Virus record (IMG/VR): IMGVR_UViG_3300033388_001820 | Length of the DNA: 64,000 bases | Source: an uncultured virus (IMG/VR IMGVR_UViG_3300033388_001820) | Taxonomy: Duplodnaviria > Heunggongvirae > Uroviricota > Caudoviricetes | Direction: 5' to 3' (one strand) | In this document: in pieces, positions 45,295 to 62,789 of the stretch | Layout: each line of letters opens with the position of its first letter | How positions within the stretch are numbered: the stretch's first letter is position 1 | Made by a program: the position numbers and the translations under genes | Notes under the pieces: generated by a model | The model's input: the letters and a program-made list of their open reading frames with translations, nothing else | Databases searched by the model: none | What the model was told of the DNA's origin: nothing

Positions 45295-45295
45295 C

Positions 45296-45559: not shown

Positions 45560-45636
45560 GGGAATGTAGCTCAGTAGGCCAGAGCGCTCGGCTCTTAACC
45601 GAGATGTCGTGGGTTCGATTCCCACTATTCCCACCA
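45560..45636 (+). tRNA. tRNA-Lys(CTT)
   Basis: Loop CTCTTAA, ACCA. Confidence 0.92.
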
Positions 45637-46028
45637 TGAGTCGCACAATGGTTCTCGCAGGAGCACCAGACCAGATGATCCAAACCGAGTACAAGCATCC
45701 AAACAGTTATGGTTTGCGATGCGACAGGGACGGACGTGTGGTAGTGTACATTACCGTAAAGCATCAGACTTCAAGTCAGAAGCTTTGGGGTTACAGCTCT
45801 GTGAAAAATCATTCAGAGATGCTGCCAGGACACTGGATTAGCTGAGGGAGCAAGACATGATTGTACATCTCAAGACACCATTCGAATACGACGGAAACGG
45901 GGACGGTGTGATTCAGTATGAAGGAGAATTAGTTCCTGCGGGACTGAACATTATAGGCCGCGACGGCAAGACATACATTCTGCCGTTTGAGAACGTGCTC
46001 GTGATGGAGAACCCTGATTCGTCTGATC

Positions 46029-46679
46029 ATGACGAAAGTTGAGGTTGATGTTGATATTGATCTGACGAAGGATGAGGTTGATGAGGTTGAGGTTGACATT
46101 GATCTAACGAAACTTGATGTTGATGTTGATCTGTTCGCCTTGTCGAACCAACTTGTTAGATATGGTGGCATAGTTCCTCCATACCTTGCGGATGAGGCGA
46201 TGGGAGCAGCGTTGGAAGCAGCTTGGCTAGCTGAACAACAATATGATGATTCGAAACACAATGACCCCGAGTCATACATACGATACATCGTCAAGCTGCG
46301 ACTCATCGACTTTATACGTGGATGGACAAAGGATCGCCCGCCGTCCCAACATGATCCTGCTCGTGAGACGTTTCAGTATCGACAGATGAAGACACTGACC
46401 ACATCCTATCAAGGATCAGAAGAGCTAGAGCGCAAAGGCGTGCCTTATGTTGAAGATCATGCTGACGATCTGATTGAACGGGAAGGAGTCCTGCAATTAT
46501 TCGAAGACACGCCATTGTCTGACGTCCAACGTTTGACAATGAACGAGTCGATTTTTGAAGGACTTCCGTTGAAGGAGATTGGTGCTCGTAGAGGCGTGAC
46601 GGAAAGTCGAACGAGTCAAATTCGTACTGAGTCCGTTAAAATCTTGCGAAGGTTTGCTGCTCGAAAAGGGTTTATGTGA
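46029..46679 (+). CDS. Sigma-70 family sigma factor (FliA/WhiG-like region 4)
   Basis: YIVKLRLIDFIR (region 2), LKEIGARRGVTESRTSQIR (region 4.2); acidic VDIDLTK repeat at N-terminus. Confidence 0.8.
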   Translation: MTKVEVDVDIDLTKDEVDEVEVDIDLTKLDVDVDLFALSNQLVRYGGIVPPYLADEAMGAALEAAWLAEQQYDDSKHNDPESYIRYIVKLRLIDFIRGWTKDRPPSQHDPARETFQYRQMKTLTTSYQGSEELERKGVPYVEDHADDLIEREGVLQLFEDTPLSDVQRLTMNESIFEGLPLKEIGARRGVTESRTSQIRTESVKILRRFAARKGFM

Positions 46680-46896
46680 TGGAGCCTGACGGCCACTTCG
46701 ATAACCAAGAAGAAGGATACACTGTCGCCTGGAAACGTGGCTACGATCATGAACGACGCGGAGAGTGGGATGTTTATGTTCTGCTCTCCGCATGGGAAGA
46801 CGAGCTAGGCTTTTGGACTAGGCAATGGTCGATGATGTCACGCAACGCACAGGTGGGGCTGCCTAACTACAAGAACTGGGAACACGCCTAACATGA

Positions 46897-46970
46897 GGAC
46901 ACGTAGCTCAGATGGCAAGAGCACCTGCTTGACATGCAGGAGGTCAGGGGTTCGAATCCCTTCGTGTCTA
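46897..46970 (+). tRNA. tRNA-Val(GAC)
   Basis: Loop TTGACAT. Confidence 0.9.
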
Positions 46971-47177
46971 CAAAGTGCCTAAACGTTGGTACGAGACAGA
47001 CGCTAACGGTCGTTGCGTTTGGAACGAGGCAGACCCTCAAGTGATGGGGAACAAATGGACCATCGAATGGGTTGATCTGGGTGTCCTCAAAGGCAAAGGT
47101 GTGCTTGCATACCATGATGGTCCGAAAGGATGGAAGAACAGCGGGTTCATGATCAACAATTGGGAACCTGCATACTA

Positions 47178-47263
47178 GGGCGTGCGGCAACGACGGCGAG
47201 TTGCGCTTGGCTGTAAACCAAGTCCTTTCAGGTTAGCAGGTTCGAATCCTGTCACTCCCACCA
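47178..47263 (+). tRNA. tRNA-Tyr(GTA)
   Basis: Loop CTGTAAA, long variable arm, ACCA. Confidence 0.88.
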
Positions 47264-47830
47264 TGATCAATCACAACGGATTCCATGTAGACCTCGGAGG
47301 CGAGTTCGTCTGGTATCATCAAGACGGCGTAGATGTGGTCATCCGTACACCGTTCAACGATGAAACCCGTTGGTGGGTTGATGATCCCGAAACGATTGGC
47401 GACGCTTGTGATGGTCCAGCAAATTGGGAGTGGGCATGGCGCTCAATGACATAAGCCACACCGAATACATAAACGGCGTGCAGATATGGTCAAGTGACAA
47501 CGACCACTGTATCTACTTCTCCCGTGAAAAGTCACCGATCTACGACGGACCAATCAACACCACCGTACTCTTTGGGAAAGGAGCAACGCAAGTCGACGGC
47601 CCTAAGAACTGGGAGCCAGCATGATCTTTCAGATCGTTGACCAATATTCTAATCTCTCTGACAGTACCAAGATCGTTGTTGGATGGGTTGAAACAGACGA
47701 AGAAGGCAAGATTGATTTTGGATTGATGTTCTACATCGGAACCAACCTCATCAGAGGGGTGACTAAGAATTACAACCTCGGAGGTGCTGGCGAACACGTC
47801 CTAGGCAATTGGGAACCCACATGACAACAA

Positions 47831-47904
47831 GCCGCATTAGCTCAAGTTGGAAGAGCACTCGCTTGTCACGCGAGAGGTCGCCGGTTCGAACCCGGTATGT
47901 GGCG
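47831..47904 (+). tRNA. tRNA-Asp(GTC)
   Basis: Loop TTGTCAC. Confidence 0.9.
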
Positions 47905-47917
47905 CTAAGAAAGACAG

Positions 47918-47991
47918 CCGCCTGTAGCTCAGCGGATAAGAGCATCTGGCTACGAACCAGAAGGTCGGGGGTTCAAATCCCTCCAGGCGGG
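47918..47991 (+). tRNA. tRNA-Arg(ACG)
   Basis: Loop CTACGAA. Confidence 0.92.
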
Positions 47992-48007
47992 CAAAGAAAG
48001 GAGACAC

Positions 48008-48706
48008 ATGCATACCAAACCATGCACGATATGCGAGGCAGAATACCCTGTCAACGGAGACTACTTCTACAGAAATGCCAGAACATCCGATGGGTTCAGG
48101 AGCCGTTGCAAGAACTGTGAACGGCCCGATATTGGCAAGAAGTTAGAGTACGACCCTGAATGGCGAAGCCGGAAACGAGAATACGAACGAGTCTACATTG
48201 AACGCAAGCTGAAAAGCTGGGTAGAAACCAATGGCCCTCTACCTACTTGCGAATGTGGCTGCGGAACTGTTGTTGGGTGGGCACGCAAAACTGGAAGCCC
48301 TGCAAGGTTCGTAAAGAACCACTATTACCACACCGCAGAGTGTGCAGAGACATCAGCCAAAACTCTACGTGAATATCATCTCCACAAGTTTGAAGATGGA
48401 GACTTCATCGAGATCAAAAAGCTTCGCAAAGCAATACGTCAAATCAAAGCAAACAAAGGATGGACCTGGAAAGAACTAGCCGACCACGGTGGCCTGTCTT
48501 TCGGGCACCTAAGAAGTATGATGTCGGATAAGAGAGTGGTCTCCGTGCGTCATGACCTTGCTTGGGGTTTCTTTCGGAGGATCGCTGAGCTACCCGCTCC
48601 GGCTTCAACTTTTCAGAAGCGTGAACTTGCTAAGGATTCAATGGCGGACGCTGGCATGGACCGTGACGTCTATACCGGACCAATTCCAGTGAACACGCAC
48701 GAGTAG
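48008..48706 (+). CDS. Putative Zn-finger plus HTH DNA-binding protein
   Basis: CTIC..F....DG....CKNC, CECGCG..RFVKNH, GWTWKELA..GLS HTH-like segment. Confidence 0.6.
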   Translation: MHTKPCTICEAEYPVNGDYFYRNARTSDGFRSRCKNCERPDIGKKLEYDPEWRSRKREYERVYIERKLKSWVETNGPLPTCECGCGTVVGWARKTGSPARFVKNHYYHTAECAETSAKTLREYHLHKFEDGDFIEIKKLRKAIRQIKANKGWTWKELADHGGLSFGHLRSMMSDKRVVSVRHDLAWGFFRRIAELPAPASTFQKRELAKDSMADAGMDRDVYTGPIPVNTHE

Positions 48707-48772
48707 CTCAGTAGGAAGAGCATCTGTATGGTACACAGAAGGCCGGGAGTTCGAATCTCCCCTTGTGCTCCA
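48697..48772 (+). tRNA. tRNA-Thr(GGT)
   Basis: Loop ATGGTAC, TCCA. Confidence 0.88.
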
Positions 48773-48786
48773 AGTATGCTACACTT

Positions 48787-48863
48787 ACCCTCGTAGCTCA
48801 GCGGATTAGAGCAGCAGGCTTCGACCCTGCGTGTCGGCGGTTCGAATCCGTCCGAGGGTGCCA
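48787..48863 (+). tRNA. tRNA-Arg(TCG)
   Basis: Loop CTTCGAC, GCCA. Confidence 0.88.
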
Positions 48864-49553
48864 AGGAGAAAAACACATGGCTAAAGAAGCAATGACTAGA
48901 GAAGAATACATGCGTGAGATTTACAACCAAGAAGGTGGCGACAAGAAGGTGCGTCATCGGGTAGCGACGTGGGCTAACGCTAACACGTCCACGAAACGGG
49001 GGTCCTGACGTTGTGCAATGGGAAGTAACGCCGATCTATTCGTTGGGTAACACAACAGCTACTCATCACATTCGGCAGCCGATACATGATCAACCAGAAC
49101 CGGACAGCAGCATGACTTTTCAAAGATGGGGTTCACGTCCCCGACGTAATGATGACCCTGACGATAGCTTCGTTGTAGTAGCCTTGGAAGAGTACGAAGA
49201 CTTTGCCTCTGCTTCACCGCGTGATGCTCTCGATCTACTTCAAGAAATGAGCGTCAATTCGTTTGCTCTGCCTAAGTCATGGGAAACGATTTCGGTATGA
49301 CCACATTTGAAGTTCACTCGCGATACGATGACGGATGGACGCTACGGTGGTCCGAGAATCTAGACAAACCAACACGCAGCGAGTGGACGTATGTCACCAA
49401 CGTGCCTAACGACCCTGGACCTCCCGACAAAGATCCCGTTGCTCATCTTGATGAACACAATGGAGAGTGGGAGATTTGGGTAAAAGAAAACGACATGGCG
49501 GGTAGACAAACGACAGAACCAATTGGCCTCGCGAATTGGGAGCCAGCGTACAC

Positions 49554-49626
49554 GTCCTTGTAGCTCAATGGACAGGGCAGTGGGTTCCTAACCCAAAGAT
49601 TGCAGGTTCGACTCCTGTCAAGGACA
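49554..49626 (+). tRNA. tRNA-Arg(CCT)
   Basis: Loop TTCCTAA. Confidence 0.88.
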
Positions 49627-49853
49627 CTATGAAAGATCACCAAGTCACTGGTAAGTGGGAAACCATCGGTGACATTAGACATGACGGCTGGTACTTTCAA
49701 TTCAAAGAACCATCCGGCAACTTGTATGGCCCGGAGTATGCACGGTACACTGAACTAATCGTGTTCTTCGGGTCGCCGTACCGGTGGCAGATCATAGATC
49801 AAGGAGCTATCTGTTTTGACGGTAGTGATGTCAAAAATTGGGAGTTCGTATAG

Positions 49854-49936
49854 GGAAGGTCCGGCATTGGTGAGCCAAGCTGTTTCGAAAACAGTGGGGT
49901 CGAAAGGCTCGGTAGGTTCAAATCCTATACCTTCCG
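49854..49936 (+). tRNA. tRNA-Ser(CGA)
   Basis: Loop TTCGAAA, long variable arm. Confidence 0.85.
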
Positions 49937-50099
49937 CAAACAAGGAGGAATACGATGAGTGGTTGTAGTTGTTGTGGAGTTCAAGCAGGGTCTTGTTTCT
50001 GTGGGGTTAACAGACTGGAACCTTTGGAAAAAAGAGTCAAACACTTAGAAGATAGAGAACGAGGTTTGCTCGGACTCATAAAACGCCTCAAAGATTCTC

Positions 50100-50184
50100 G
50101 GAAGGACTGACATTGGGGAGTCAAGCGTCTTGGAAAGGCGTCGGAGTTTCAAAGCTTCTGCGGGTTCGATTCCCGTTCCTTCCT
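50100..50184 (+). tRNA. tRNA-Ser(GGA)
   Basis: Loop TTGGAAA, long variable arm. Confidence 0.82.
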
Positions 50185-50193
50185 CGCAAGTCT

Positions 50194-50277
50194 GGAATCA
50201 TGACCAGCAGTATGGGCTGGCCCTGTTTTGAACGCAGGTACCTCGCAAGGGGGCGGGTTCGAACCCCGATGTTTCCG
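50194..50277 (+). tRNA. tRNA-Ser(TGA)
   Basis: Loop TTTGAAC, long variable arm. Confidence 0.78.
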
Positions 50278-50488
50278 CTATGAAAACAACAGCTATACTC
50301 CAGTCCCTGTACGAACCTACCAGCTACAGAAAGATCATCGTTCTGTTTGTGGCCTGTCTCACTGCTCTAGTCGTGAGTTTCATTCTGATCATAGGCGGTG
50401 CTAGTTGGGGTCTTCTCATCGGTATGCCTGCTGCTGCGTTTGGTGGTGGCTGGTTTGCCTACATGTACAACTATGAAGTGAAACACTA

Positions 50489-50582
50489 GGAACGGTGGCC
50501 GAGTCTGGTCTATGGCACCACCCTGCTAAGGTGGAGGCCCTCGTAAGGGGGTCCGTGGGTTCAAATCCCACTCGTTCCTCCA
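50489..50582 (+). tRNA. tRNA-Ser(GCT)
   Basis: Loop CTGCTAA, long variable arm, TCCA. Confidence 0.9.
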
Positions 50583-50600
50583 TTCCAATCAAACAGACTT

Positions 50601-50676
50601 GCCCCCATAGTGCAGCGGCCAAGTACGCTACCCTTTCAAGGTAGAAGCACGGGTTCAAATCCCGTTGGGGGTACCA
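50601..50676 (+). tRNA. tRNA-Glu(TTC)
   Basis: Loop CTTTCAA, ACCA. Confidence 0.92.
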
Positions 50677-52590
50677 TCGCATGGGCTACACTGACAAGTG
50701 ATTGATCAAGACATCGGTCGTCGCTGGACAACCTTCTCAGAAGATGCTATCATACTGGCACACCTGTATGACGGCCAAGGCCCACCAGTAACGGTCGTTC
50801 ATCAAGAACTCGATGCCATGTTATGCACGATCGCTCACAATTGGGAGACAACATGAGAGTAGTCATCATGGCTCTGCCAAACGGCAAGGCTCAACCCACT
50901 GACATGCTGGAGACTTTCCGTCTAGCCTTGGATTGCGGCGAAGTTTTCGTTAACGGAGAACACTATTTGATCACCGGACCAGACCGAATGACGAACTATT
51001 CTCTTGATGATCGGTACTTTGATCAGTTACCTTCATGGTGGGAGCCAAGATAATGTACACTACGAGGTTATGCAGGAATTGTGGCAGACAGACGATACGT
51101 ATTTACAGGTCCAAGGACGAGGCGGTACGCTGCTCTGCGTAGTCCAAGAAGATGGTACTGTGAAAGTGTTAGCAACATTTGAGCGCATCGACTCCGACGA
51201 TATTGAAGAAGTGGTAGAGCTGCTACAGTTAGGACTAGAAACTCGTGAAGCCCCTGGTGGCGGACCTCCCGGTGGCGGCGGACCTCCCGGCGGCGGACCT
51301 CCCTGACCTATGAAGACCAACCGTTCAAGGAGAAATCATATGGATAGTGACACCTGGACCAAGAACTGGACCATCGGTCGTGTGCAAATCGGATACCGAA
51401 TTATGAGACACAACTACCCACAAGGAGATCATCGACTCGTGATTCATCCATCTTTCACTGTTGACTACGGACGGCGGAAGCCGATCGTCTCTCGGATGGA
51501 GACAGAAGAATGAGTGATTGCCACGATCCGGTTTGTGAGATTCTGAGTACCCAGTCAGTCAGAGAATTGAAAGCTATGCAGGCCACGATTGATGATCTGT
51601 ACGCTAGAAACGCTGAACTGGAAGAGGACTTTGATGATCTCATGAAGAACGACGAACAAAACGACGCCACAGTCGAACGACTACAAACAGCGCTGGAGAA
51701 GATCGCCAACGGTTGCAAGTCTGACAACGGGTCGGTGAAGATGGGAGCCAAGAAGGCTCGACGTATCGCTGCTGCTGCTCTCGCTGCGGAACGACCGTTC
51801 TTTGGTGGTGGCCTTCTGTTCTCGCAGAAGAAGCAGTCATGACCGATGAAGAACGCGACAAAACACTTCTTCTCATAGGGTTGGTAATGATGGTCAGTGC
51901 AGCTATGGGGGCGTCTGGCGGCTGGCTAGTCGTTGCCCTCATCCCACCAGCAATTCTGTTGATTTCTGCTGTCTTCCGGTTCGCTGACGACGAGTGGGAA
52001 TCATGAACGAGGACGACATGCATTGCCCTCGATGCACCCGACGAGGAAACCGGTGGTACTGCCGGATGTGCAAGGGAACACACAAGATCACGAAACAAAA
52101 GAGTGATTGGCTCTGGGACACAGGAAGAACAATGAGGGGAGGGTGATCATGAGTGACGACGGACATCGCAAAAATTGTTGGTGCGCTCCTAACCGGAAGC
52201 CGTGTGCGTATCACGAAGGGTTCCAAGACGCCCAGGACAAAAACGACGAGCAGCTACGGGCTGCGCTGAAGGTTGTACACAGTCTCACTCGGCCTGGTGT
52301 TGCTGATCGGTTCTTGCGGGATGTAATTGCTGACCTTCACGAGCACACCTGCGTCGTTCTTGAAATCAAACCTTTATCATGACCGACTGGCGATGTAACT
52401 GCGTTCGTCTCCCCGGCGAGCATTATCACCAGCAAGACGCCTACTTGATGGTCGCCGAGATTGAGGTACTACAGGAAGCACTAGCTGAGATCGGTGACTA
52501 TCACGATGACGGTAGTACCAGCTCCATATATACACAGAACCGTGTTGCCGAGGTGCTCGGTGACGACTGGTGGGAAAGCAGGTTCGGCCA

Positions 52591-52824
52591 ATGACCGACA
52601 CGATGATTCACGAAGACACAAAGATCGACACAACAGACGGAGGGCATGACCTGTTCTCCCATTACGTGCTCAAAGCAGAAGCAACACGTGCCGCTGTAAC
52701 AGGCGAGCCGTGCATGGCTCTCTGCGGTAAGATATGGGTGCCTTCACGAAATCCTGACGGGTTGACGGTGTGTCCTGAATGCAAGGACATTTACTCAGAA
52801 ATGAGAGGCAACAAAGGAAAGTGA
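52591..52824 (+). CDS. DUF3039-family protein
   Basis: FSHYV.K....AAVTG.P..ALCGKIWVPSR.P...VCPECKDIY. Confidence 0.85.
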   Translation: MTDTMIHEDTKIDTTDGGHDLFSHYVLKAEATRAAVTGEPCMALCGKIWVPSRNPDGLTVCPECKDIYSEMRGNKGK

Positions 52825-52855
52825 AGTTTGACATTTGTGTCAAACTGTAGTACGA

Positions 52856-52928
52856 TGGGGTGTAGCTCAATTGGAAGAGCACCGGGTTCTGATCCCGTTT
52901 GTTGCAGGTTCGAGTCCTGTCACCCCTG
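52856..52928 (+). tRNA. tRNA-Gln(CTG)
   Basis: Loop TTCTGAT. Confidence 0.88.
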
Positions 52929-53652
52929 CTCTAAGGAGATAAATGGCTAGACGTAAGCCCTTCATGTGTAGCTGGTGCAAAGACATCCCACGCGTCGAAC
53001 GTGGTGGCACCATCACACTCATCCACTTCCGCGAAGACAATGAAGTCTTCGAAGGGCAAGCAGCGCTGGACTGGATAGCCCGTCAATGCGCCTGCAAGCA
53101 GGTCGTGGTCGAAGAAGTCCCTGAGATCAGACGACCCGGCGCACGCATCCTCAAGCCTGGCACAAACGTGTACGTGCAACTCAAACGTAAGCCTGGGACC
53201 TCCCGAGACGAAGGGTTCGTGACGAACTGTTACGAGAACGGCACTGTCCGTATCCAATTGCTTACCGACAAGCACGCAGTGGTGACGGTGCCTGCCGACG
53301 AGTACGTGATTGGAAGGAGAGGGACACGTGCAGATGAGACCAGAGCTAGCTGACGTAATCGACCTTGACATCAACCCAGTATCTGATATGGTGTTTGTTA
53401 TCTCTCAAGAGCGAGACGGTCAGATGCTCAAAGTGTTCGCCGACCAGTGGTCTTGTGATAACTTGGGACACTTCACCGAAGCTTGGATACCTAACACATG
53501 GACTTTAGCCTAACGCTACCCAACCTCAAAGAGGATAAGATCGAGGCGCAGCGCCGTGCGATCGGCGTACTGCATCGGCGGATTCAGGAAGGCGACTTTC
53601 CTCCTGATGTGACCGAAGCGATCAGGCAGGCACTTGACGGACAGCTTCCGAG

Positions 53653-53832
53653 ATGGTAGCCTATCAAAGTATAGGAAGATACACCATCTGGTGGTCCGAA
53701 GAAGACGAGTCCAGCATAAACCCTGCTTGTTGCCGGGTCTGTTCTTGGACAGAGTATTGGAACATCAGCATCAAAGGTCCCATACGAGTCAACAACGTAA
53801 CCCGACTTCCCACCAACTGGGAATCAGTTTAG
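53653..53832 (+). CDS. 59-aa NWE-motif mini-protein (not in ORF track)
   Basis: MVAYQSIGRY...RLPTNWESV*. Confidence 0.65.
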   Translation: MVAYQSIGRYTIWWSEEDESSINPACCRVCSWTEYWNISIKGPIRVNNVTRLPTNWESV

Positions 53833-54343: not shown

Positions 54344-54347
54344 CTGA

Positions 54348-54421: not shown

Positions 54422-54425
54422 CTAT

Positions 54426-54506: not shown

Positions 54507-54512
54507 CAACAT

Positions 54513-54590: not shown

Positions 54591-54598
54591 TTACATTT

Positions 54599-54684
54599 GC
54601 CCAGGTGGCGGAATTGGCAGACGCGCCAGGCTTAGACCCTGGTATCCGTAGAAGGGTGTAGGGGTTCGAGTCCCCTCTTGGGCA
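54599..54684 (+). tRNA. tRNA-Leu(TAG)
   Basis: Loop CTTAGAC, long variable arm. Confidence 0.9.
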
Positions 54685-55344: not shown

Positions 55345-55740
55345 ATGGTGCCGATGATATCATATGAAGTGGGTAACGATCTTGGCGATCGAGAACAAAA
55401 TTCCGTACATCAAGATGAATGGCCAGACCCCTCCATGTTTTACCTGCAATGACAACGAATATGGTACACCGGTTTGCAGATGTAAAGCTCCGAGTAACTG
55501 GGTGTACACTCACGAGATTTCTGATATGCTAAGATTAGCAAGGTACGGGAAGTATCCCGACTGGTTTATAAAGGAGTAAACGATGGGAAGATGCGAACAT
55601 CCAGAATGTGAAGTGTCAGCGCACCGACGAATTTTCGTTGGTGAAGAGGTGTACGAATACTGTCTAGAACATTACGACGTGGCGACTGCTGTTCAACAAA
55701 ACAGGAGACCACAATGGGAACCAGACAACTCTTGAAACTT

Positions 55741-55823
55741 GCGTCTGTGGTGGAATGGCAGACACGCCAGTCTGAGAGGCTGGTGCCCGGAAGGGCGTGT
55801 GGGTTCAACTCCCACCAGACGTA
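55741..55823 (+). tRNA. tRNA-Leu(GAG)
   Basis: Loop CTGAGAG. Confidence 0.88.
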
Positions 55824-55827
55824 CTAT

Positions 55828-55902
55828 GCGGGTGTAGCTCAATGGCTAGAGCCTCAGTTTTCCAAACTGATGATGAGGGTTCGATTCCCTTCACCCGCTC
55901 CA
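55828..55902 (+). tRNA. tRNA-Gly(TCC)
   Basis: Loop TTTCCAA, TCCA. Confidence 0.93.
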
Positions 55903-56328
55903 TGTTAGACAATTACATCGCTCATTACGTTGCCCCTGGGCCGACTCCGTTGTTCTATTCGCTAGTCGAATATCTAGTGTTTGGTCTGTGTGATTACAGT
56001 GACACTACCGACATCGCTATCCGATACGAAGAAGGCGACCATAATGGTTCAAAAGTCATGCCAAGAAATTGGGTAACGCTATGATTGAGTACAACATCGA
56101 GAAGCCTACCGAGCCTGAGTTTTTTCAGGAGACTGGCAACTGGTATCGGAGGCGATGGTCGCTCAGTATGTACCAGAACGTCGTGCTGCTTGAAACGGAC
56201 GGACCGATCAACAGAGACGGGGACCTCACGTTGATCTCGTACTGGGATAGCACCAATTCTTACAAGACAGAAAGACACCGTTTGCCTAACTCTTGGGTGT
56301 GGGCATGACGATGAGTAATGTAATACAC

Positions 56329-56401
56329 GGGTTAGTAGCTCAATTGGTAGAGTACAACCTTGCCAAGGTTGATGTTGCCGGTTCAAGTCCGGTCTAGCCC
56401 T
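56329..56401 (+). tRNA. tRNA-Gly(GCC)
   Basis: Loop TTGCCAA. Confidence 0.9.
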
Positions 56402-56544
56402 CGCTGGTTGCAGGGAGAATATTCGGAACCAGACGCCCCAGGGCAAGTAGCCCTTGGGTATTTCGATGCCCCTCACCCAAGTTTTTCCTCTGGTGAAAGC
56501 GCAGGCTGAGGCACCCCGTTGACTTATCCCTGCAACCATGCTAT

Positions 56545-56620
56545 GCTTCGGTAGCTCAGTTGGAAGAGCGTCGCTCTCGTAAAGCGAAGGCCGCGAGTTC
56601 AAATCTCGCTCGAAGCTCCA
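56545..56620 (+). tRNA. tRNA-Thr(CGT)
   Basis: Loop CTCGTAA, TCCA. Confidence 0.92.
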
Positions 56621-57010
56621 AGGAGATTAGGATGAATGGATGATACCGATCAAGAGTTCTGGAGTGTGGTCAACCACAGCCTCACCGACGAGGACGACGG
56701 GAGGCCCACTCGGTGGGAGATGGCCGCTTGGTTCGTCACCTTCGTGGTGTTGATCGGCCTGCTCGTTATTGGTCCCATCTGGGTGGTGTTCCTATGAGAG
56801 AAGAACGTCCGTCGACGCGCAGTGTAAGCAGAAGGAGTTAAGTCGACTATGAGTGAGTGATCCTGATACATTATGCGGTTACACCTTTGATGTCTTGCAT
56901 GACCTGGGATGCGCGGTATAGCAACCTCCTGGCCAGACCCCTTCAAGTGGAAGGAAGAGGGATCAAAGCGCAGTATCAGGTCTTCCACTAGGGAAGAGAA
57001 GAAAGTACAT

Positions 57011-57086
57011 GCCGAATTAGCTCAGTGGCCAGAGCAGTGCTCTTGTAAAGCGAAGGTCCTCGGTTCGACTCCGAGATTCGGCTCCA
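57011..57086 (+). tRNA. tRNA-Thr(TGT)
   Basis: Loop CTTGTAA, TCCA. Confidence 0.92.
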
Positions 57087-57629
57087 TGAATATGAGATAC
57101 GAAAAATACTGGGGAGGCGCTGCTGACGGCGGCTTCTGGAACTGGACGGCTCAGCGACCTGGGCAAGAGAAGTGTATTGGCATGGGCTGGTATCGTTGGA
57201 CAGCCTGGCTCAAAGCATGGCGTGCCACAAGGAACGCCCCTTACATGGAAGAATGGTAAATCATGGCAAGTTTTCACACACCCTCAGAACTACTCGCTTA
57301 TGGAGATTTCATCTACGACAAGTTTCTCACTGTGACCGAGGTCACAACCCTTGAAGGAACAGGCGTTATCGTGGCCGGTAGGCGCGGAGGCACAGGCAAA
57401 GCAGAAACGCACACCTTTGAGACCGACGACAAAGTGTGGATTCATCGCACCAACCACATCTTCGACTGTGGACCTGATGCCCAATGATGGACGCGTTTGA
57501 CGATTACATGCTTCGCATGTACCCTCCACCAATCGACCCTGACAAAGAACGTCTACGCAGGGACATGAACAAGGCTCGACACGCTGCATTGGATGCGGGT
57601 GAGCCTGACCCTTTCGTCATATACATCAA

Positions 57630-57705
57630 GGTACCGTAGCTCAGCAGGAAGAGCGCTGGCGTGAAGCCCCAGAGGTCGTTGGTTCGACTCCGACCGGTAC
57701 CACCA
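57630..57705 (+). tRNA. tRNA-Phe(GAA)
   Basis: Loop GTGAAGC, ACCA. Confidence 0.85.
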
Positions 57706-57729
57706 CTCCAACCATGCTATACTATCTCC

Positions 57730-58698
57730 ATGAGCATTGATCAAGTACAAAAAAACCTAGAGAAGAAGTTCGGCAAGGGTGCCGTCGTTCGCATGAACGA
57801 CAAACCTCAAGACATTGAAGTAATCCCGACAGGGAACATAATCCTCGACATGGCTCTAGGTGTTGGCGGCTACCCGCGAGGTAGAATCGTTGAAATCTTC
57901 GGACCTGAATCCTCTGGCAAGACAACGCTGGCTACACACGCAGCGGCTGAAGCACAGAAACTCGATTTGAACGTGGCCTACATCGACGCAGAGCACGCTA
58001 TTGACCCGACATACACCGAAGCGTTGGGCGTAGACCTTAACGCTGTCCTGCTCAGTCAGCCTGACAGCGGCGAGCAGGCTCTTGAGATCGCTGACGAAAT
58101 GGTCAAGTCAGGAGAGTTCGGATTGATCGTAGTGGACTCTGTAGCGGCTCTCACGCCTCGTGCAGAGCTAGCAGGTGAGATGGGAGACTCTCATATGGGG
58201 CTGCAAGCACGGTTGATGGGGCAGGCTCTACGCAAGATGCGTGGCACCGCCAACACAACTGGTACGACGCTCATCTTCGTCAATCAGATTCGTGAGAAGA
58301 TCGGGGTCATGTTCGGGTCGCCAGAAACTACACCGGGTGGACGTGCGCTCAAGTTCTTCTCCACTATCCGTCTCGACATCCGTCGCATCGGTGCGATCAA
58401 AAACGGTGTTGAGATCATGGGCAACGAGACACGAGTCAAAGTCGTCAAGAACAAGGTGGCACCGCCGTTCAAACAGGCCGAGTTTGACATCATGTATGGT
58501 CGTGGTGTGTCGCAGTCAGGGTCGATCATTGACCTCGGCGTGGCAGAGGACTTGATCTTGAAGTCCGGCGCGTGGTACACTATCGGAGAAGAGCAGGTGC
58601 AGGGTCGTGAGGCTGCCAAAGATTCGCTAGAATCTCAGCCTGATCTGATGGCGGAACTGTACGAGAAGCTAGCCTACGAGGACGAGACAGGTGACTGA
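57730..58698 (+). CDS. recA: Recombinase RecA
   Basis: [78 protein letters not shown] at 57718-57723 suggests a leaderless transcript. Confidence 0.98.
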
Positions 58699-58866
58699 AT
58701 TCCATTTAAGAGACGGACGTCGACGTAAGGCCACTTTGCGCACCGGGAATAGTCATAGCAAACGAAGCTACAAGAAGGCCCGAAGCAAAAGCGAGAAACG
58801 TGACCGGGCAGAACAGAATGAGATCAGACAACTGAAACGTATTCTCAGAAACGAACAAGAAGCAAG

Positions 58867-58942
58867 GGACGTGTAGCTCAGCAGGAAGAGCAGCGGTTTT
58901 ACACACCGCAGGTCGTCGGTTCGAACCCGGCTACGTCCACCA
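58867..58942 (+). tRNA. tRNA-Val(TAC)
   Basis: Loop TTTACAC, ACCA. Confidence 0.92.
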
Positions 58943-58973
58943 GAAAGGATTAAGTCCCCTTCGGGGGCAAGTT

Positions 58974-59051
58974 GTGGCAGTAGCTCAGTCTGATTAGAGC
59001 GTCGGGTTGTGATCCCGAAGGTCGCGGGTTTAAATCCCGTCTGTCACCCCA
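58974..59051 (+). tRNA. tRNA-His(GTG)
   Basis: Loop TTGTGAT, C73-CCA. Confidence 0.88.
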
Positions 59052-59314
59052 TCGCAAACAACAAGAAAGAGAGAAACACACATGTTGTGGTTCATTATTT
59101 TCTACCTAGTCATGATGGCAGTGTTCGCTCAGTGGATCATCATTCCCCTGTACTCCAACGAACACGGAATACTTGAGATGCTCGCTCCTGAGACGCACGA
59201 AGAGTGGGAGCAGCAAACCAACACCGTAAAGACGGTCATCACTTTGATCGTCTCAGCCTTTTGGCCGCTCATCGTTATTGGAACCGCCGTTGCGATGTTC
59301 CAGAAAGTCATCAG

Positions 59315-59455
59315 ATGATAGCACTACTGACAATCATCGCAGCGATACTGTTCGTGCGTGTTGCCGTTGATGCTAATCGTCGTCGCGGATACGTCGCAAA
59401 GTTTGTAGTAGCCTTCGTGGTCGCGTGGGTTGTGCTCTTCCTTATGGGCATCTGA
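59315..59455 (+). CDS. 46-aa membrane protein (paralog of 5114-5248)
   Basis: MIALLTIIAAILFVRVAVDANRRRGYVAKFVVAFVVAWVVLFLMGI. Confidence 0.75.
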   Translation: MIALLTIIAAILFVRVAVDANRRRGYVAKFVVAFVVAWVVLFLMGI

Positions 59456-59465
59456 AAGGATAGAC

Positions 59466-60212
59466 GTGAAGATAGGATTTCTTGGCGACGTACACGGTAG
59501 CCCCGGCTGGGTGAAGTGGGCGTTCGCAGAACTTGTGAAGCAAGGAGCTGAGATAATCGTTCAGCTAGGTGACCTCATGTACTGGGAACACAAACCCGGT
59601 GGCAAGGAGTTCATCGACTACATCCAAAGCCTGTGCGACGAATACTGTATTGATTTCTGGTGGATTGATGGGAACCACGAGAACTTTGATTGGCTATACG
59701 ACTATCCGCTTGATAGAAACGGGCGTAGACCTATCCGGCCGAACGTCATTCATCTGCCTCGTGGACATGCTTGGGAATGGGATGGCGTGAAGTTCCTAGC
59801 CTTCGGCGGATCATACTCCATCAACAAGGACATGCTTACCCCTGGTGACTCGTATTGGCCACAGGAGATGCCGACAGTACAAGAAGTCGACATTGCTCGT
59901 GCGGTTGGCAAAGTAGATGTCATGATCAGTCATGACGTGCCTGAAGGTGCGGACCTAGCGGATTTGTTAGGACCGTCTTGGATGGTATTTGCTACGCATC
60001 CTGCCGAGTGTGGGATTGTACGAAGACGAGTACGGGACGTATGGGACATTGCACAACCGAACTGGCTTTTTCACGGGCACTATCATCGGAGGGCTAACAG
60101 TGTACTTGGTAGGACGCGCATCGTGGGCCTGGCTAACGAAAACACCGGACCCAATTCTATCTATCTTGCAGACACCAATAGCCTACGTTCAGGGTTTGCT
60201 GGAACAATTTGA
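59466..60212 (+). CDS. Calcineurin-like metallophosphoesterase
   Basis: GDVHG, QLGD, GNHE, SHD, HGHYH. Confidence 0.92.
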   Translation: MKIGFLGDVHGSPGWVKWAFAELVKQGAEIIVQLGDLMYWEHKPGGKEFIDYIQSLCDEYCIDFWWIDGNHENFDWLYDYPLDRNGRRPIRPNVIHLPRGHAWEWDGVKFLAFGGSYSINKDMLTPGDSYWPQEMPTVQEVDIARAVGKVDVMISHDVPEGADLADLLGPSWMVFATHPAECGIVRRRVRDVWDIAQPNWLFHGHYHRRANSVLGRTRIVGLANENTGPNSIYLADTNSLRSGFAGTI

Positions 60213-60321
60213 TGACGCTCTCACTGCTGTTGACTACAGTGGTTGGGACGATTACTACCTCTACAATTTCGGTTTCCATCTCCCGATACCTAAAAACTGG
60301 GAGCCGGGGGTCGTGTATCTT

Positions 60322-60395
60322 GGTGGCGTAGCTCAGCAGGTTAGAGCAACGGGTTCATAATCCGTAGGTCGTTGGTTCAAATCCAACCGTCACTA
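60322..60395 (+). tRNA. tRNA-Met(CAT) (elongator or Ile2)
   Basis: Loop TTCATAA. Confidence 0.88.
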
Positions 60396-60402
60396 CTCTA
60401 AG

Positions 60403-60431
60403 TTGACAACGGCGTTATACCGTAGTACACT
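60403..60431 (+). promoter_or_regulatory. SigA-type promoter
   Basis: TTGACA-N17-TACACT. Confidence 0.7.
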
Positions 60432-60514
60432 AACACATGAGAACGCCATGCGGTTCATCTACTCTCGGTCGGGGGTCGAACCGTTACACGGTGGCCCCCG
60501 ACACACAATTTCGA

Positions 60515-60592
60515 TGCAGGGTGGAGCAGTCTGGTCAGCTTGCTTGGCTCATAACCAAGACGTCGTGGGTTCGAATCCCACCCCTGCCACCA
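60515..60592 (+). tRNA. tRNA-Met(CAT), initiator-like
   Basis: Loop CTCATAA, 1:72 mismatch, GTGGAGCAG D-arm, ACCA. Confidence 0.85.
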
Positions 60593-60647
60593 ACTTAGAA
60601 AGGCAACATGGAACTCAATATACCAGCCATCATTTTTTAACACACAC

Positions 60648-60722
60648 GGGGGTGTAGCTCAGCCTGGCTAGAGCATCTGCTTTGCAAGCAGAAAGTCGTG
60701 GGTTCGAATCCCATCTCCTCCA
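60648..60722 (+). tRNA. tRNA-Ala(TGC)
   Basis: Loop TTTGCAA, G3-U70. Confidence 0.9.
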
Positions 60723-60735
60723 CTTTTTACCACGC

Positions 60736-60820
60736 GGGGACGTGGCGGAATTGGCAGACGCGCTGGGTTCAAGCTCCAGTGAGATAATACCTCGTGAGGG
60801 TTCAAGTCCCTCCGTCCCTA
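60736..60820 (+). tRNA. tRNA-Leu(CAA)
   Basis: Loop TTCAAGC, long variable arm. Confidence 0.9.
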
Positions 60821-61013
60821 CTATGACGAAACTCACGCAACATCAACATCTAGGTTCCCGTATGCCAACTGTTGAATTTCATGAAGACAATTGCAATCTT
60901 TGGGCACATCAAGAAGGATGGATCTGTGGCATCGCTCATGAAGACAGTGGAGCATTGTGGCATGATCAAGTTTCTTCTCACGACCTAGCAAATTGGGAGT
61001 TCATATAGTCCGA

Positions 61014-61086
61014 GCCTTTGTAACTCAGCGGACAGAGTGGCAGGTTTCTACCCTGCTGGGCGTAGGTTCGAATCCTACCAAGGGCG
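61014..61086 (+). tRNA. tRNA-Arg(TCT)
   Basis: Loop TTTCTAC. Confidence 0.88.
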
Positions 61087-61483
61087 CTAAGCAATTACCT
61101 ACGAATGGAGAACTCATGGAATACGGTTTCGAAACTGGTGAAGAACCAACCGAGGAAGAAATGGAGCAGATGGAATCCGACTACGCAAAGTACGCTGGAC
61201 AACAGATCGCTTACGTCGATCGACTCTATGATTTCGTGAACGGCTTGGACAAAGCACAGTTGGATGCGTTCCTGCAACTAACCAAACAGTTCGGAACGAG
61301 TCCTACTACGATCCAGTTCTGGTCAGGCTACTCCCGTGCCCTCAGGTACGCCAAGTTTGATGTGAACCCGAACCCGTATGTACCGAAGCTGAATCCCGAA
61401 GATTTCATAGATAACGCTGAAACCGAAGAAGAAAACTGATATGCTCTAGACTAGATCCCGATACAACATAGGAGGTGGGTGAC

Positions 61484-61978
61484 ATGGGTGGAGTTCTGTT
61501 GCTGAATGCAACATATGAGCCAATGCGTGTCCTGCCTCTCAAGCGGGCTATCGTACTTGTGCTGCAAGAGAAGGCCGAGATCGTAGAAGACGAAGGCGGT
61601 GTGATCAGGTCTGAGAACCTGTCTATCACGCTACCAAAGGTGATCCGTCTGCTGTACTACGTGAAGATTCCGTACAGGAAGAAAGTGCCGCTCTCTAACA
61701 GGACCGTGCTTGTCCGAGACAAGTTCAAGTGCGCGTACTGTGGCCAGAAGGCAACTACAATCGACCACGTGTGGCCCAAGTCTTTGGACGGTGCCCACGA
61801 CTGGACGAACGTTGTTGCAGCATGTCAGCCATGCAACCAGAAAAAGGGCAACCGGACTCTGGATCAGCTAGGTTGGACGTTGCCATTCAAGCCTGACAGG
61901 CCAACCACACGCAAGTGGGTTGTTGTCGAAAGGATTGAGAAGTCATGGGTCCCATATCTAGAGATGGCGAGCGCATGA
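61484..61978 (+). CDS. HNH endonuclease
   Basis: VLLLNATYEP, RDKFKCAYCG, TIDHVWP, WTNVVAACQPCNQKK. Confidence 0.92.
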   Translation: MGGVLLLNATYEPMRVLPLKRAIVLVLQEKAEIVEDEGGVIRSENLSITLPKVIRLLYYVKIPYRKKVPLSNRTVLVRDKFKCAYCGQKATTIDHVWPKSLDGAHDWTNVVAACQPCNQKKGNRTLDQLGWTLPFKPDRPTTRKWVVVERIEKSWVPYLEMASA

Positions 61979-62028
61979 TTGAGGGAGTTGGTCGGTGGGG
62001 GGCGCGTTCCCTGCCGACCTCTCCACGA

Positions 62029-62103
62029 GCGGGTATAGCATAATTGGCAGTGCCGCGGGCCTTGGCCCCGCTAGTTCAAGTTCGAGTCTTGATACCCGTA
62101 CCA
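62029..62103 (+). tRNA. tRNA-Gln(TTG) with C33
   Basis: GCGGG-CCTTGGC-CCCGC arm, ACCA. Confidence 0.75.
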
Positions 62104-62243
62104 TGAAACAGTTCTACAGTTCACGATTCTACTCTTGGGCTACACGTGACGCCTACGGCATCAATTACAACGCCGAGTACGCTTTGGTTCACGATGAGAT
62201 CAGTGGCTTAACGTACATCAGTGTACACTCTATACCCGCATCA

Positions 62244-62789
62244 TTACTCCCCAGAAACTGGGGCGGATAAGTATGAACCCCCCGCATCCCTCAGCTTGTA
62301 TCTGTTGCTCCAAGGCAATGGAAGGCTGCTGCTGACGCCGAGAAAGCTCAACAAGGGATCAGGGTCCTCTACTAAATCCTCAAGATAGAACTGAGCGACG
62401 GCTATCTCAGATACCAAGTCGTTCCAAGCATCCCACCAGTATTCGGCGCGTCTGCGTGGGTCGATGACTCGGCTCAAGCCTGGAAGGATACGTTCAGCGT
62501 AACGGGAGCTAGTCTCGATTACTCCGTTGATCAGTAGACTAGCGATGCAAGCCTGTCTGTTTCTCAGAAGTTGTATGACTATCAGTTCAGAGACAGGGAA
62601 GAGGGGAGCCATCCAAGAACTATCTCCAGCATATTCACCCCAGTCAACGTCGCCGTACAAAGACATGCCGTTGAAAACTCTTTCATGTCCAGTGAGTCGA
62701 CCTGCGTCAGTTATCAGTTCTGAAACAGACCGGGTACCGGAACGAGGCATCCCGGTGATTACAAACTTAGAACTGTCCTTGACCGGCAC
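62244..62789 (-). CDS. Sulfotransferase-like / P-loop protein
   Basis: FVITGMPRSGT, GHERVF, LLRN...IASL; start codon uncertain. Confidence 0.65.
   Translation of the reverse strand: MPVKDSSKFVITGMPRSGTRSVSELITDAGRLTGHERVFNGMSLYGDVDWGEYAGDSSWMAPLFPVSELIVIQLLRNRQACIASLLINGVIETSSRYAERILPGLSRVIDPRRRAEYWWDAWNDLVSEIAVAQFYLEDLVEDPDPLLSFLGVSSSLPLPWSNRYKLRDAGGSYLSAPVSGE

Follow-up and report, generated by a model that had tools for sequence, protein, structure and literature searches.

Known arrangements of tRNAs and leaderless genes

The punctuation of animal mitochondrial transcripts by tRNAs was reportedly described by Ojala, Montoya and Attardi in 1981 and is named in the abstract of PMC8601606, and natural tRNA-like elements of Haloferax produce a leaderless mRNA. 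The locus described here lies in an uncultured virus (IMG/VR IMGVR_UViG_3300033388_001820), of which a stretch of 64,000 nucleotides (the window) was analyzed. It resembles mitochondrial punctuation in that tRNAs and open reading frames (ORFs) abut on one strand without spacers, in that tRNA excision would release mRNAs starting at or beside the AUG, and perhaps in its stop codons, two of which (47178 and 50489) share a base with a tRNA, where mitochondrial stops are left incomplete. It differs in belonging to a bacterial virus, in showing the design at only 8 of ∼25 tRNA-to-gene junctions, and in needing CCA repair, because the start codon takes in the A76 of the tRNA itself.

The available part of PMC4946936 presents tRNA-shaped RNA as a processing signal that sets exact RNA ends; in the phage, by contrast, the signals would be functional array tRNAs. 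The earlier note had called leaderless translation common in actinobacteria, which agrees with the available excerpts of PMC6448022 and PMC4633059, and the host of this phage appears to be actinobacterial. In those excerpts, mycobacteria need an ATG or GTG at the 5′ end for leaderless initiation, and such a codon suffices (PMC4633059), leaderless mRNAs make up 24% of Mycobacterium smegmatis transcripts, and C occupies +1 at over 90% of cleavage sites mapped in that species (PMC6448022). Where tRNA genes of P. acnes and S. coelicolor encode the CCA, excerpts describe a cut between the two Cs, mapped by dRNA-seq, with CCA repair presumed (PMC3848588; PMC4681348). The phage arrangement would share with these systems a sufficient 5′ AUG, a cut at C74/C75, and C at +1 (PMC4633059, PMC3848588, PMC4681348, PMC6448022), whereas the leaderless mRNAs in those papers are made by transcription initiation and the same excerpts connect no tRNA 3′ cleavage with a coding sequence behind it.

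The arrays of PegLeg, a Mycobacterium phage, and Zooman, a Microbacterium phage, resemble the present one in their same-strand tRNAs, HNH endonucleases, RtcB, and phosphoesterase, in ORFs that end at tRNA positions 8-10, and in an invariant C74 (18/18 and 37/37 tRNAs, respectively). Genes in them occasionally start 1-2 nt past position 76, but a position-76 ATG occurs at 0/55 of their tRNAs compared with 10/41 here, and they lack the family of NWE-tailed mini-proteins described below. A search for a syntenic relative of the phage found none, and no RNA run was found to contain its sequence.

The tRNA array and its position-76 starts

The array lies on one strand:

41774..62103, + strand, tRNA array of 41 genes (ARAGORN, Rfam) with all 20 amino acids and two CUA-anticodon tRNAs

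ARAGORN at default settings called 40 tRNAs, every one on the + strand, and Rfam covariance models backed 39 of the final 41, with discriminator positions agreeing with ARAGORN wherever RF00005 matched. tRNA-Ser(UGA) at 50194-50278, which has one mismatch in the acceptor stem, was missed by both default ARAGORN and Rfam and was detected by ARAGORN at a 90% threshold. Interspersed among the tRNAs are small ORFs and genes for RtcB, a sigma factor, RecA, a phosphoesterase, and an HNH endonuclease (Pfam/PHROG matches). Dense same-strand tRNAs, RtcB, phosphoesterase, HNH endonuclease, and relatives infecting Actinobacteria mark this as an actinophage-type tRNA array. Position 74 is C in 41/41 tRNAs, position 75 is variable (C 20, T 12, A 6, G 3), and position 76 is A in 35/41.

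In 10 of the 41 tRNAs, position 76 is also the A of an ATG, and 8 of these 10 ATGs open frames of 55-74 codons (69, 63, 74, 69, 60, 57, 61, and 55 in the order listed here):

45514..45542, + strand, sigma-70-like promoter (TTGACA, 17 nt, TATGCT with TG), a consensus match only
45560..45636, + strand, tRNA-Lys(CUU) with encoded CCA; A76 is the A of ATG 45636 (ARAGORN; Rfam 72.6 bits)
45636..45845, + strand, mini-ORF of 69 aa with tail ...MLPGHWIS and weak coding score
47178..47263, + strand, tRNA-Tyr; shares G1 with the upstream TAG stop and A76 with ATG 47263 (ARAGORN, Rfam)
47263..47454, + strand, mini-ORF of 63 aa, ...GPANWEWAWRSMT; NWE codons 5 nt upstream of the next ATG (47436)
49554..49629, + strand, tRNA-Arg(CCU), discriminator 49626, tail CTA; A76 is the A of ATG 49629 (ARAGORN, Rfam)
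49629..49853, + strand, mini-ORF of 74 aa, ...VKNWEFV; stop flush with tRNA-Ser(CGA) at 49854
50194..50280, + strand, tRNA-Ser(UGA), tail CTA; A76 is the A of ATG 50280 (relaxed threshold only)
50280..50489, + strand, mini-ORF of 69 aa, hydrophobic over long stretches and without NWE tail; its TAG shares the G with base 1 of tRNA-Ser(GCU)
55828..55902, + strand, tRNA-Gly(UCC) with encoded CCA; A76 is the A of ATG 55902 (ARAGORN; Rfam 71.5 bits)
55902..56084, + strand, mini-ORF of 60 aa, ...VMPRNWVTL
57011..57086, + strand, tRNA-Thr(UGU) with encoded CCA; A76 is the A of ATG 57086 (ARAGORN, Rfam)
57086..57259, + strand, Trp-rich mini-ORF of 57 aa, C-terminus ...PYMEEW
60736..60823, + strand, tRNA-Leu(CAA), tail CTA; A76 is the A of ATG 60823 (ARAGORN, Rfam)
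60823..61008, + strand, mini-ORF of 61 aa, ...LANWEFI; 5 nt between its end and tRNA-Arg(UCU)
62029..62103, + strand, tRNA-Gln(UUG) with encoded CCA; A76 is the A of ATG 62103 (ARAGORN, Rfam)
62103..62270, + strand, mini-ORF of 55 aa, ...LLPRNWGG

The earlier note had named these eight ATGs, and every coordinate proved correct. Five junctions read CCA-TG (45636, 47263, 55902, 57086, 62103) and three read CTA-TG (49629, 50280, 60823); the CTATG junctions at 54424 and 55826, whose G doubles as base 1 of the following tRNA, open no ORF. The note had proposed counting such junctions in related phage arrays against chance. In the window, with TG following A at a frequency of 0.069 and 35 tRNAs carrying A76, ten ATGs have a binomial P of about 9e-5, and position-76 ATG junctions were found at 0/70 tRNAs in three other phage arrays. 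Frames of at least 55 codons follow 8/10 position-76 ATGs compared with 26% of + strand ATGs in the region (P = 6e-4). Among ORFs of at least 50 codons, eight start at offset 0 and at most one at every other offset from -12 to +11; offsets +1 to +5 hold no such ATG ORF, the sole frames there being one with GTG (+2) and one with another non-ATG start (+5). The position-76 starts are thus confirmed as real and beyond chance. At the remaining tRNA-to-gene junctions of the window, genes have a Shine-Dalgarno (SD) site or a promoter.

ORFs also reach up to tRNA 5′ ends. Fourteen ORFs stop between 6 nt upstream of and 11 nt into a tRNA, with four flush, five at 5-6 nt upstream, and five at tRNA positions 8-11. 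The stops that had been described as abutting or overlapping tRNAs (43543, 47178, 49853, and 50489) each lie flush with the 5′ end or share G1, the latter being the TAG stops at 47178 and 50489. Among the eight position-76 tRNAs, only tRNA-Tyr combines a flush upstream stop with its flush start.

Coding character of the mini-ORFs

The eight position-76 ORFs look real. Six of them are among ∼16 mini-proteins that share a C-terminal [LM]PxNWE tail, and such genes are maintained, because one member (46679-46891) has a homologue in public data that is 75% identical, of equal length, and with the same tail. The codon-usage score is weak in 4/8 (0.05-0.08 bits per codon compared with 0.27 in long genes), and frame 0 scores best of six in 7/8, the exception being ORF 60823, which is outscored by a different frame. 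Start regions are weakly structured (first 40 nt, mean -3.65 kcal/mol compared with -6.95 for random 40-mers) and A+U-rich (first 21 nt, 64% compared with 48% in the region). The claim that there is no room for an SD also stands: seven of the eight have no SD-like tetramer, and the sole AAGGA sits inside an acceptor stem.

Probable host and proposed mechanism

The host is probably an actinobacterium, judging from encoded proteins. Among the best 80 GTDB RecA matches, 74 are from Actinomycetota, including the top 55 (taxon per record title); the best RtcB matches are from Mycobacterium, Corynebacterium, and Gordonia phages; and an Rpf-like PF06737 domain is encoded.

In such a host, sigma-70-like promoters would produce a polycistronic array RNA, in which tRNAs and small genes follow each other with hardly any spacer. 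The putative promoter at 45514..45542 ends 18 nt upstream of tRNA-Lys(CUU), which would be the first element of its transcript, with ORF 45636 as the first gene. Production of tRNAs would need cutting at both tRNA ends, and the 3′ cut in an actinobacterial host is expected at or just after position 73/74, upstream of A76; a CCA-adding enzyme would then finish the tRNA. The released downstream RNA would carry a 5′ monophosphate and start N75-A76-U-G, or would start directly on A76, and an AUG so placed, at the 5′ end or one base in, should be usable by actinobacterial ribosomes without an SD. On the main reading, to which a probability of about 0.5 is given, the eight mini-genes are therefore expressed from leaderless or near-leaderless mRNAs that processing generates as the tRNAs are released. 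The geometry of the junctions, their departure from chance, the lack of SD sites, and the coding character of the ORFs are observed, and co-transcription, the cut site, tRNA repair, and translation of the freed RNA are inferred.

This scheme works only if the cut falls 5′ of A76 and the tRNA is repaired by the CCA-adding enzyme. Because tRNA and ATG have A76 in common, cleavage behind it would cost the message its start codon, and so would a cut of the E. coli type further downstream with subsequent trimming. The invariant C74 next to a variable position 75 fits a cut at C74, although the invariance extends to the PegLeg and Zooman arrays and may instead reflect RNase P recognition. Cleavage between C74 and N75 would leave a leader of one base, and sharing A76 makes the leader as short as the tRNA permits. 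The earlier note had proposed that tRNA processing releases leaderless or near-leaderless mRNAs; the anatomy, the plausible ORFs, and the probable actinobacterial host favor this in part, while such a cut would give a one-base leader rather than an end without any leader. The link that the note drew between mini-protein production and maturation of the tRNAs would follow from this model. Excerpts of PMC8459731 report that leaderless translation is approximately halved per extra 5′ base in Caulobacter and that a one-base leader inhibits it in E. coli, and the available parts of the literature on actinobacterial leaderless translation yielded no report of translating 5′-monophosphate ends.

A more specific form, tentative and with the odds against it, treats the tRNAs as punctuation, in which a conserved A(-4)C(-3) leader and a cut at invariant C74, with CCA repaired, would yield from a single precursor a tRNA and a leaderless message for the lineage-specific [LM]PxNWE mini-protein family, with output one-to-one with tRNA release. 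If true, mitochondrial punctuation would gain its first viral and bacterial counterpart, in which tRNA and mRNA have nucleotides in common and RNase P splits stop codons.

Alternative explanations

Simple compaction would have ribosomes initiate internally and independently of an SD on unprocessed or partly processed polycistronic RNA, at A+U-rich starts behind a stable tRNA fold, the overlap being the tightest packing. Gene-gene junctions of similar style (TGATG at 45142 and 46679, ATGA at 47621), ORFs that also reach tRNA 5′ ends, and the weakly structured start regions all suit it, and internal SD-free initiation is possible in such hosts because, in the available part of PMC6448022, an SD is missing from about half of the leadered genes of M. 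smegmatis. However, the one base saved is a negligible gain, the offsets just past position 76 are empty of long ATG ORFs, internal genes elsewhere in the array have an SD, an upstream-ORF overlap, or a -10 box, and an mRNA end at or beside the AUG arises anyway because functional tRNAs must be excised, so this explanation is considered unlikely. Conventional translational coupling by stop/start overlap was rejected for all eight ORFs, as the upstream element is a tRNA; ORF 45636 cannot be coupled to an upstream gene because the 45514 promoter puts tRNA-Lys first.

The junctions could also be a historical by-product of tRNA insertion into the stop/start overlaps of an older tandem NWE-tail array, leaving downstream ORFs poorly or not expressed and decaying. 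Deletion of tRNA bases 1-75 restores TAATG at tRNA-Tyr and ATGA at tRNA-Arg(CCU), 7/8 ORFs start with ATGA, four have weak coding scores, and an orphan NWE-coding motif lies at 54222 in the tRNA-Asn/tRNA-Cys gap, directly after a stop codon and outside ORFs of at least 30 codons. Yet removal of the tRNA reconstitutes an overlap at only 2/8 junctions, and decay sits poorly with 8/8 intact frames, the preference for frame 0 in seven, the C-terminal motif kept in six, and the homologue of 46679-46891, which together make this account quite improbable. Less probable still is initiation across a folded tRNA, in which a ribosome that ends at a flush stop or binds GGGAG in the NWE codons would reach the AUG because the acceptor stem joins the flanks. 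tRNA-Tyr has the flush stop and start together, and AAYTGGGAR occurs 9-18 nt upstream of eight tRNA 5′ ends and, where the tRNA is absent, 5 nt upstream of the next ATG (47436 and 47621), but that pairing of stop and start is found in 1/8 only, a promoter rather than an ORF lies upstream of tRNA-Lys(CUU), and the effective spacing would be at least 14 nt. We know of no precedent with a tRNA, which also counts against it.

Other starts behind tRNAs

Starts of other kinds lie near tRNAs or a tRNA-like element:

40462..41119, + strand, cloverleaf-like element (40462-40550) ending ...CCACCA, then TT, then ATG 40553
43318..43543, + strand, mini-ORF 43331-43543 without SD; TACACT 7 nt upstream of the ATG, stop flush with tRNA-Lys(UUU)
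46975..47178, + strand, mini-ORF of 67 aa with NWE tail; the first in-frame start codon is a GTG on position 78 of tRNA-Val(GAC)
50687..50856, + strand, NWE-tail mini-ORF 50698-50856 with GTG start and without SD; TACACT 5 nt upstream
57718..58698, + strand, RecA, ATG 57730, without SD; TGcTATACT ends 6 nt upstream of the ATG

A second class of ORFs starts 12-16 nt downstream of tRNAs and bears AGGAG-type sites; because this class stands beside the spike at offset 0, two distinct initiation designs are seen instead of a smear of small offsets. The starts at 46975 and 40553 had been placed within a few nucleotides of tRNA or tRNA-like 3′ ends, and they lie at position 78 and 2 nt past the CCACCA end, respectively. 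The latter opens a dTDP-sugar epimerase-like gene without an SD; the element before it, which was not called by any tRNA tool used, may be of the tRNA-shaped processing type presented in the available part of PMC4946936.

The three SD-less genes behind tRNAs that start more than 2 nt from position 76 (43331, 50698, and RecA at 57730) each have a TAYACT -10 box 5-7 nt upstream, and because of these boxes the phage seems to use leaderless initiation anyway. A primary leaderless start of this kind was rejected for the position-76 ORFs, as TANNNT is found ∼6-7 nt upstream in 0/8. The RecA ATG lies 24 nt downstream of tRNA-Phe, and homologue alignments begin at residue 2, which fixes the start and makes the RecA mRNA a candidate primary leaderless mRNA.

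Position-76 junctions

Eight mini-ORFs in the tRNA array were said in the earlier note to start on the last base of a tRNA CCA end, position 76, and this proved correct at every junction: the ATG takes its A from tRNA position 76 at 45636, 47263, 55902, 57086, and 62103, where the shared A belongs to an encoded CCA, and at 49629, 50280, and 60823, where it belongs to a CTA tail. The eight frames run for 55-74 codons. CTATG also occurs at 54424 and 55826, where the G is base 1 of the next tRNA and no ORF is opened. The junctions lie beyond chance, with ten ATGs on position 76 (binomial P = 9e-5, given A76 in 35 of the 41 tRNAs and a local P(TG|A) of 0.069), and eight of these ten open at least 55 codons, compared with 26% of the + strand ATGs of the region (P = 6e-4). 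In the offset profile, eight ORFs of at least 50 codons begin at offset 0 and at most one at every other offset from -12 to +11, with a second cluster of ORF starts at +12 to +16.

Arrays of other phages were also counted, a comparison proposed in the earlier note, and ATG fell on position 76 in 0 of 70 tRNAs (15 in the viral contig L002, 18 in Mycobacterium phage PegLeg, and 37 in Microbacterium phage Zooman). One annotated HNH gene of PegLeg opens 2 nt past position 76, and one frame in Zooman begins right after CCA.

ORF ends that had been described as abutting or overlapping tRNA 5′ ends are likewise accurate: those at 43543 and 49853 stop one base ahead of the tRNA, and at 47178 and 50489 the G of TAG is tRNA base 1. 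Among 14 plausible ORFs finishing near a tRNA 5′ end, four are flush, five are 5-6 nt short, and five finish inside the tRNA at positions 8-11, four of them with TAG at positions 8-10 and one, at 50110, with TGA at positions 9-11. Two further starts had been placed close to a tRNA or tRNA-like 3′ end, and both are: GTG 46975 is at position 78 of tRNA-Val, and ATG 40553 lies 2 nt past the ...CCACCA of a cloverleaf-like RNA (40462-40550). This RNA has two T-arm-like hairpins and a fold z-score of -1.97, and it was called by neither ARAGORN nor Rfam; the ATG behind it opens a dTDP-sugar epimerase-like gene without a Shine-Dalgarno (SD) site.

The tRNA array

The array comprises 41 tRNA genes at 41774-62103, all on the + strand. 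Default ARAGORN settings gave 40 of them, with tRNA-Ser(UGA) (50194-50278) detected only at a relaxed threshold; Rfam models support 39 of the 41, and discriminator positions were the same wherever RF00005 matched. C74 is present in all 41 tRNAs though CCA is encoded in just 20, and position 75 is variable. C74 is also universal in PegLeg (18/18) and Zooman (37/37), both of which lack the position-76 junction, and occurs in nine of ten CCA-less tRNAs from other loci. Upstream of the tRNA 5′ ends, A(-4) is found in 27, C(-3) in 29, and both together in 21 of the 41, frequently within the final codons of the preceding ORF. This leader may guide processing by RNase P protein or RNase E. Rather than marking a 3′ cut, C74 may serve RNase P, and so may the A(-4)C(-3) leader, in keeping with studies of how RNase P recognises leaders.

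Two adjacent tRNAs with CUA anticodons open the array:

41774-41847, + strand, amber suppressor tRNA (ARAGORN label Pyl)
41849-41925, + strand, amber suppressor tRNA (ARAGORN label Pyl)

TAG is the stop of 2 of the 39 long genes in the window. Read-through of TAG by these tRNAs, fusing ORFs across tRNA-Tyr or tRNA-Phe, was considered and rejected, with the frames open and their count at chance level. The ORF before tRNA-Phe, the tRNA, and RecA share one frame (57484-58698) broken just by a TAG at tRNA positions 8-10, and 46975-47454 shows the same arrangement across tRNA-Tyr.

Start designs behind tRNAs

Genes behind tRNAs show four start designs. In one, an AGGAG-type site follows the tRNA directly and the ATG lies 12-16 nt further (48008, 48877, 49955, 52943, 56636, and 61116). 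The second, ATG on position 76 without an SD site, is that of the eight. In the third, which also lacks an SD site, a TAYACT -10 box stands 5-7 nt upstream of the start (43331, 50698, and RecA at 57730, the N-terminus of which is set by 80 homologue alignments beginning at residues 1-10, mostly residue 2); these three look like primary leaderless mRNAs. GTG 46975, with neither an SD site nor a -10 box, falls outside these three and resembles the second.

Sigma-70-like promoter matches (TTGACA, 17 nt, TAnnnT) are present on the + strand, and one ends 18 nt ahead of tRNA-Lys(CUU), so that ORF 45636 would be the first gene of its transcript and could not be coupled to an upstream ORF. A transcription start at A76 from a promoter within the tRNA was rejected, since TANNNT stands at the right distance in none of the eight. 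Promoter-like sites at 52828-52856 and 56519-56547 (TTGACA/TTGACT, 17 nt, TACGAT/TATGCT) have -10 hexamers ending at base 1 or 3 of tRNA-Gln(CUG) and tRNA-Thr(CGU), and transcription from them would thus begin within the tRNA.

Coding character of the eight ORFs

By codon usage, scored with 18 long genes as the training set, frame 0 is the best of six frames in seven of the eight ORFs, the exception being 60823, where another frame scores higher. Four ORFs are gene-like (0.22-0.31 bits per codon) and four are weak (0.05-0.08), and all eight exceed the off-frame mean (-0.21). Their first 40 nt average -3.65 kcal/mol, compared with -5.4 at other starts and -6.95 in random 40-mers, and A+U makes up 64% of their first 21 nt. 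Three of the eight are found in a public protein collection with the exact position-76 start (P0002, P0003, and P0004), and the stored product of 45636 (P0001, 65 aa) starts at a later ATG.

Gene content and probable host

The window has a G+C content of 53% and carries phage-like genes for a PPDK-like kinase, RuvB-like and MoxR-like ATPases, Ku, an ATP-dependent ligase, HNH endonucleases, RtcB, RecA, and a phosphoesterase. Loci outside the tRNA array include:

29023-29829, Ku-like protein, close to the ligase
30363-31367, ATP-dependent DNA ligase, close to the Ku-like protein
37799-38350, Rpf-like transglycosylase domain protein (PF06737, 2e-17)

Ku-like protein and ligase presumably form an end-joining pair, as in some mycobacteriophages. 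The host is likely an actinobacterium, as judged from RecA, RtcB, the Rpf-like domain, and stop usage. The 80 best RecA hits among GTDB species include 74 whose record titles place them in the Actinomycetota, led by Acidimicrobiales, Aquihabitans, and Ilumatobacteraceae at 64-65% identity; the best phage matches of RtcB are from Mycobacterium, Corynebacterium, and Gordonia phages (47-49%); the PF06737 domain is typical of Actinobacteria and their phages; and 33 of 39 long genes stop in TGA.

Megablast of 45000-52000 found no match among 50,697 phage records. No syntenic relative emerged among viral contigs when RecA, RtcB, the sigma factor, a 555-aa protein, and P0007 served as queries, and a metagenome scan with RecA reached 64% identity at most; of the contigs scanned, only L002 carries a tRNA array, its 15 tRNAs lying on the opposite strand. 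Short low-depth contigs identical to the window are present in two sediment DNA runs, and no RNA run containing its sequence was found among the sequencing runs searched.

The PPDK-like kinase (15495-17279) lies amid large paralogous proteins matching phrog_17568 and phrog_20946 (13311-26310), with counterparts in Rhizobium, Stenotrophomonas, Vibrio, and Rhodobacter phages; this region may be a DNA-modification module. Within the tRNA array, 46029-46679 encodes a 216-aa protein with sigma-70 regions 2 and 4 at borderline Pfam scores (24.3 and 22.9 bits, cut-offs about 24), possibly an ECF-sized sigma factor encoded by the phage.

A proposed route from tRNA excision to a translatable mRNA

Functional tRNAs need excision, so an RNA end must arise near the AUG; with A76 belonging to both tRNA and ORF, the start codon would be lost if the RNA were cut after A76, or cut further along and then trimmed back. 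Sealing of the flanks by RtcB once the tRNA is removed was rejected on end chemistry: RNase P and RNase Z produce 5′-P and 3′-OH ends, which RtcB cannot join.

A cut after C74 would instead yield a repairable tRNA and an mRNA starting N75-AUG. In published dRNA-seq data, CCA-encoding tRNAs of P. acnes and S. coelicolor are cut between the two Cs, and repair by the CCA-adding enzyme is proposed by the authors (PMC3848588, PMC4681348); together with C74 in every tRNA of the array, such cuts would produce this N75-AUG end. In M. smegmatis, C stands at +1 in >90% of mapped cleavage sites, and leaderless mRNAs make up 24% of transcripts (PMC6448022); in mycobacteria, leaderless initiation requires a 5′ ATG or GTG, which is also enough for it (PMC4633059). 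In Caulobacter, leaderless translation is about halved per extra 5′ base (PMC8459731); with each base so costly, ATG on A76 would give the shortest leader that the tRNA permits.

The interpretation that tRNA processing generates the mRNAs of the eight has become more specific and is plausible. The alternative that ribosomes initiate internally on the precursor without an SD site, the overlap being mere compaction, is rather unlikely; such initiation is possible in actinobacterial-type hosts, yet saving one base of genome appears to account for the exact offset less well than the shortest leader does. The junctions might also be a historical by-product of tRNAs inserted into ATGA or TAATG junctions, which is improbable given that just two of the eight match and that their frames are intact. 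Initiation across the folded tRNA finds little support and is very improbable.

The phage design would work as mitochondrial tRNA punctuation and tRNA-like processing elements do. It differs from them in belonging to a bacterial virus, in being used at only a third of tRNA-to-gene junctions, and in having a start codon that overlaps the tRNA itself. No description of a position-76 tRNA-ORF design in phages was found in searches of open-access text. If the interpretation is true, tRNA excision would serve bacteria and their viruses, and not organelles alone, as a source of mRNA ends that can be translated. It would also account for the expression of small genes that lie unannotated by the dozen in the tRNA arrays of phages, where gene callers often move or miss such starts, as with 45636. 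The design would also be linked to host-specific tRNA 3′ cutting, inside CCA and followed by repair, and the junction type would be a possible host-range marker.

Mini-proteins with a shared C-terminal tail

Six of the position-76 ORFs share a C-terminal tail, [LM]PxNWE[PSF][AIV], with about ten further mini-ORFs of the array, giving a set of about 16 (39-94 aa) within 43331-62270:

ORF ends with the tail: 43960, 45294, 46891, 47178, 47454, 47624, 47824, 49563, 49853, 50856, 53832, 61008
ORF ends with a weaker tail: 43543, 45845, 56084, 62270, 60331

The coding motif AAYTGGGAR has 17 copies, always on the + strand and 15 of them between 43.9 and 61 kb; shuffled sequence holds 1.7 copies, and 17 was reached in 0 of 100 shuffles. 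The N, E, and P codons of the tail vary synonymously, which places the constraint mainly at the protein level, and a purely nucleotide-level signal was rejected on this variation and the common Px[NH]W pattern. An ECF-type -35 box was also rejected, as it would place the transcription start within a tRNA. At the tandem junctions 47436 and 47621, GGGAG of the motif lies 5 nt ahead of the following ATG.

The members are hardly similar beyond the tail, with just one pair at E = 0.014, so that "family" here means a common tail and size only. None of the mini-proteins has a Pfam or PHROG match. A low-confidence AlphaFold2 model of ORF 47621 (pLDDT 57) shows a beta-hairpin core, and its tail is predicted to be disordered, as would suit a short binding motif, perhaps for a common partner. 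A mini-protein profile found no proteins beyond those of the window among 5.8 billion clusters, and P0002 as a lone query matched only itself. Among 1.84 billion representatives, the profile recovered seven window proteins and P0007, which is 75% identical to the 46679-46891 product, of equal length, and with the same tail; such genes are thus maintained in at least one relative. An orphan NWE-coding copy (54222-54230) lies right after a stop codon in the interval from tRNA-Asn to tRNA-Cys and in no ORF of at least 30 codons; a mini-gene since lost may have left it behind.
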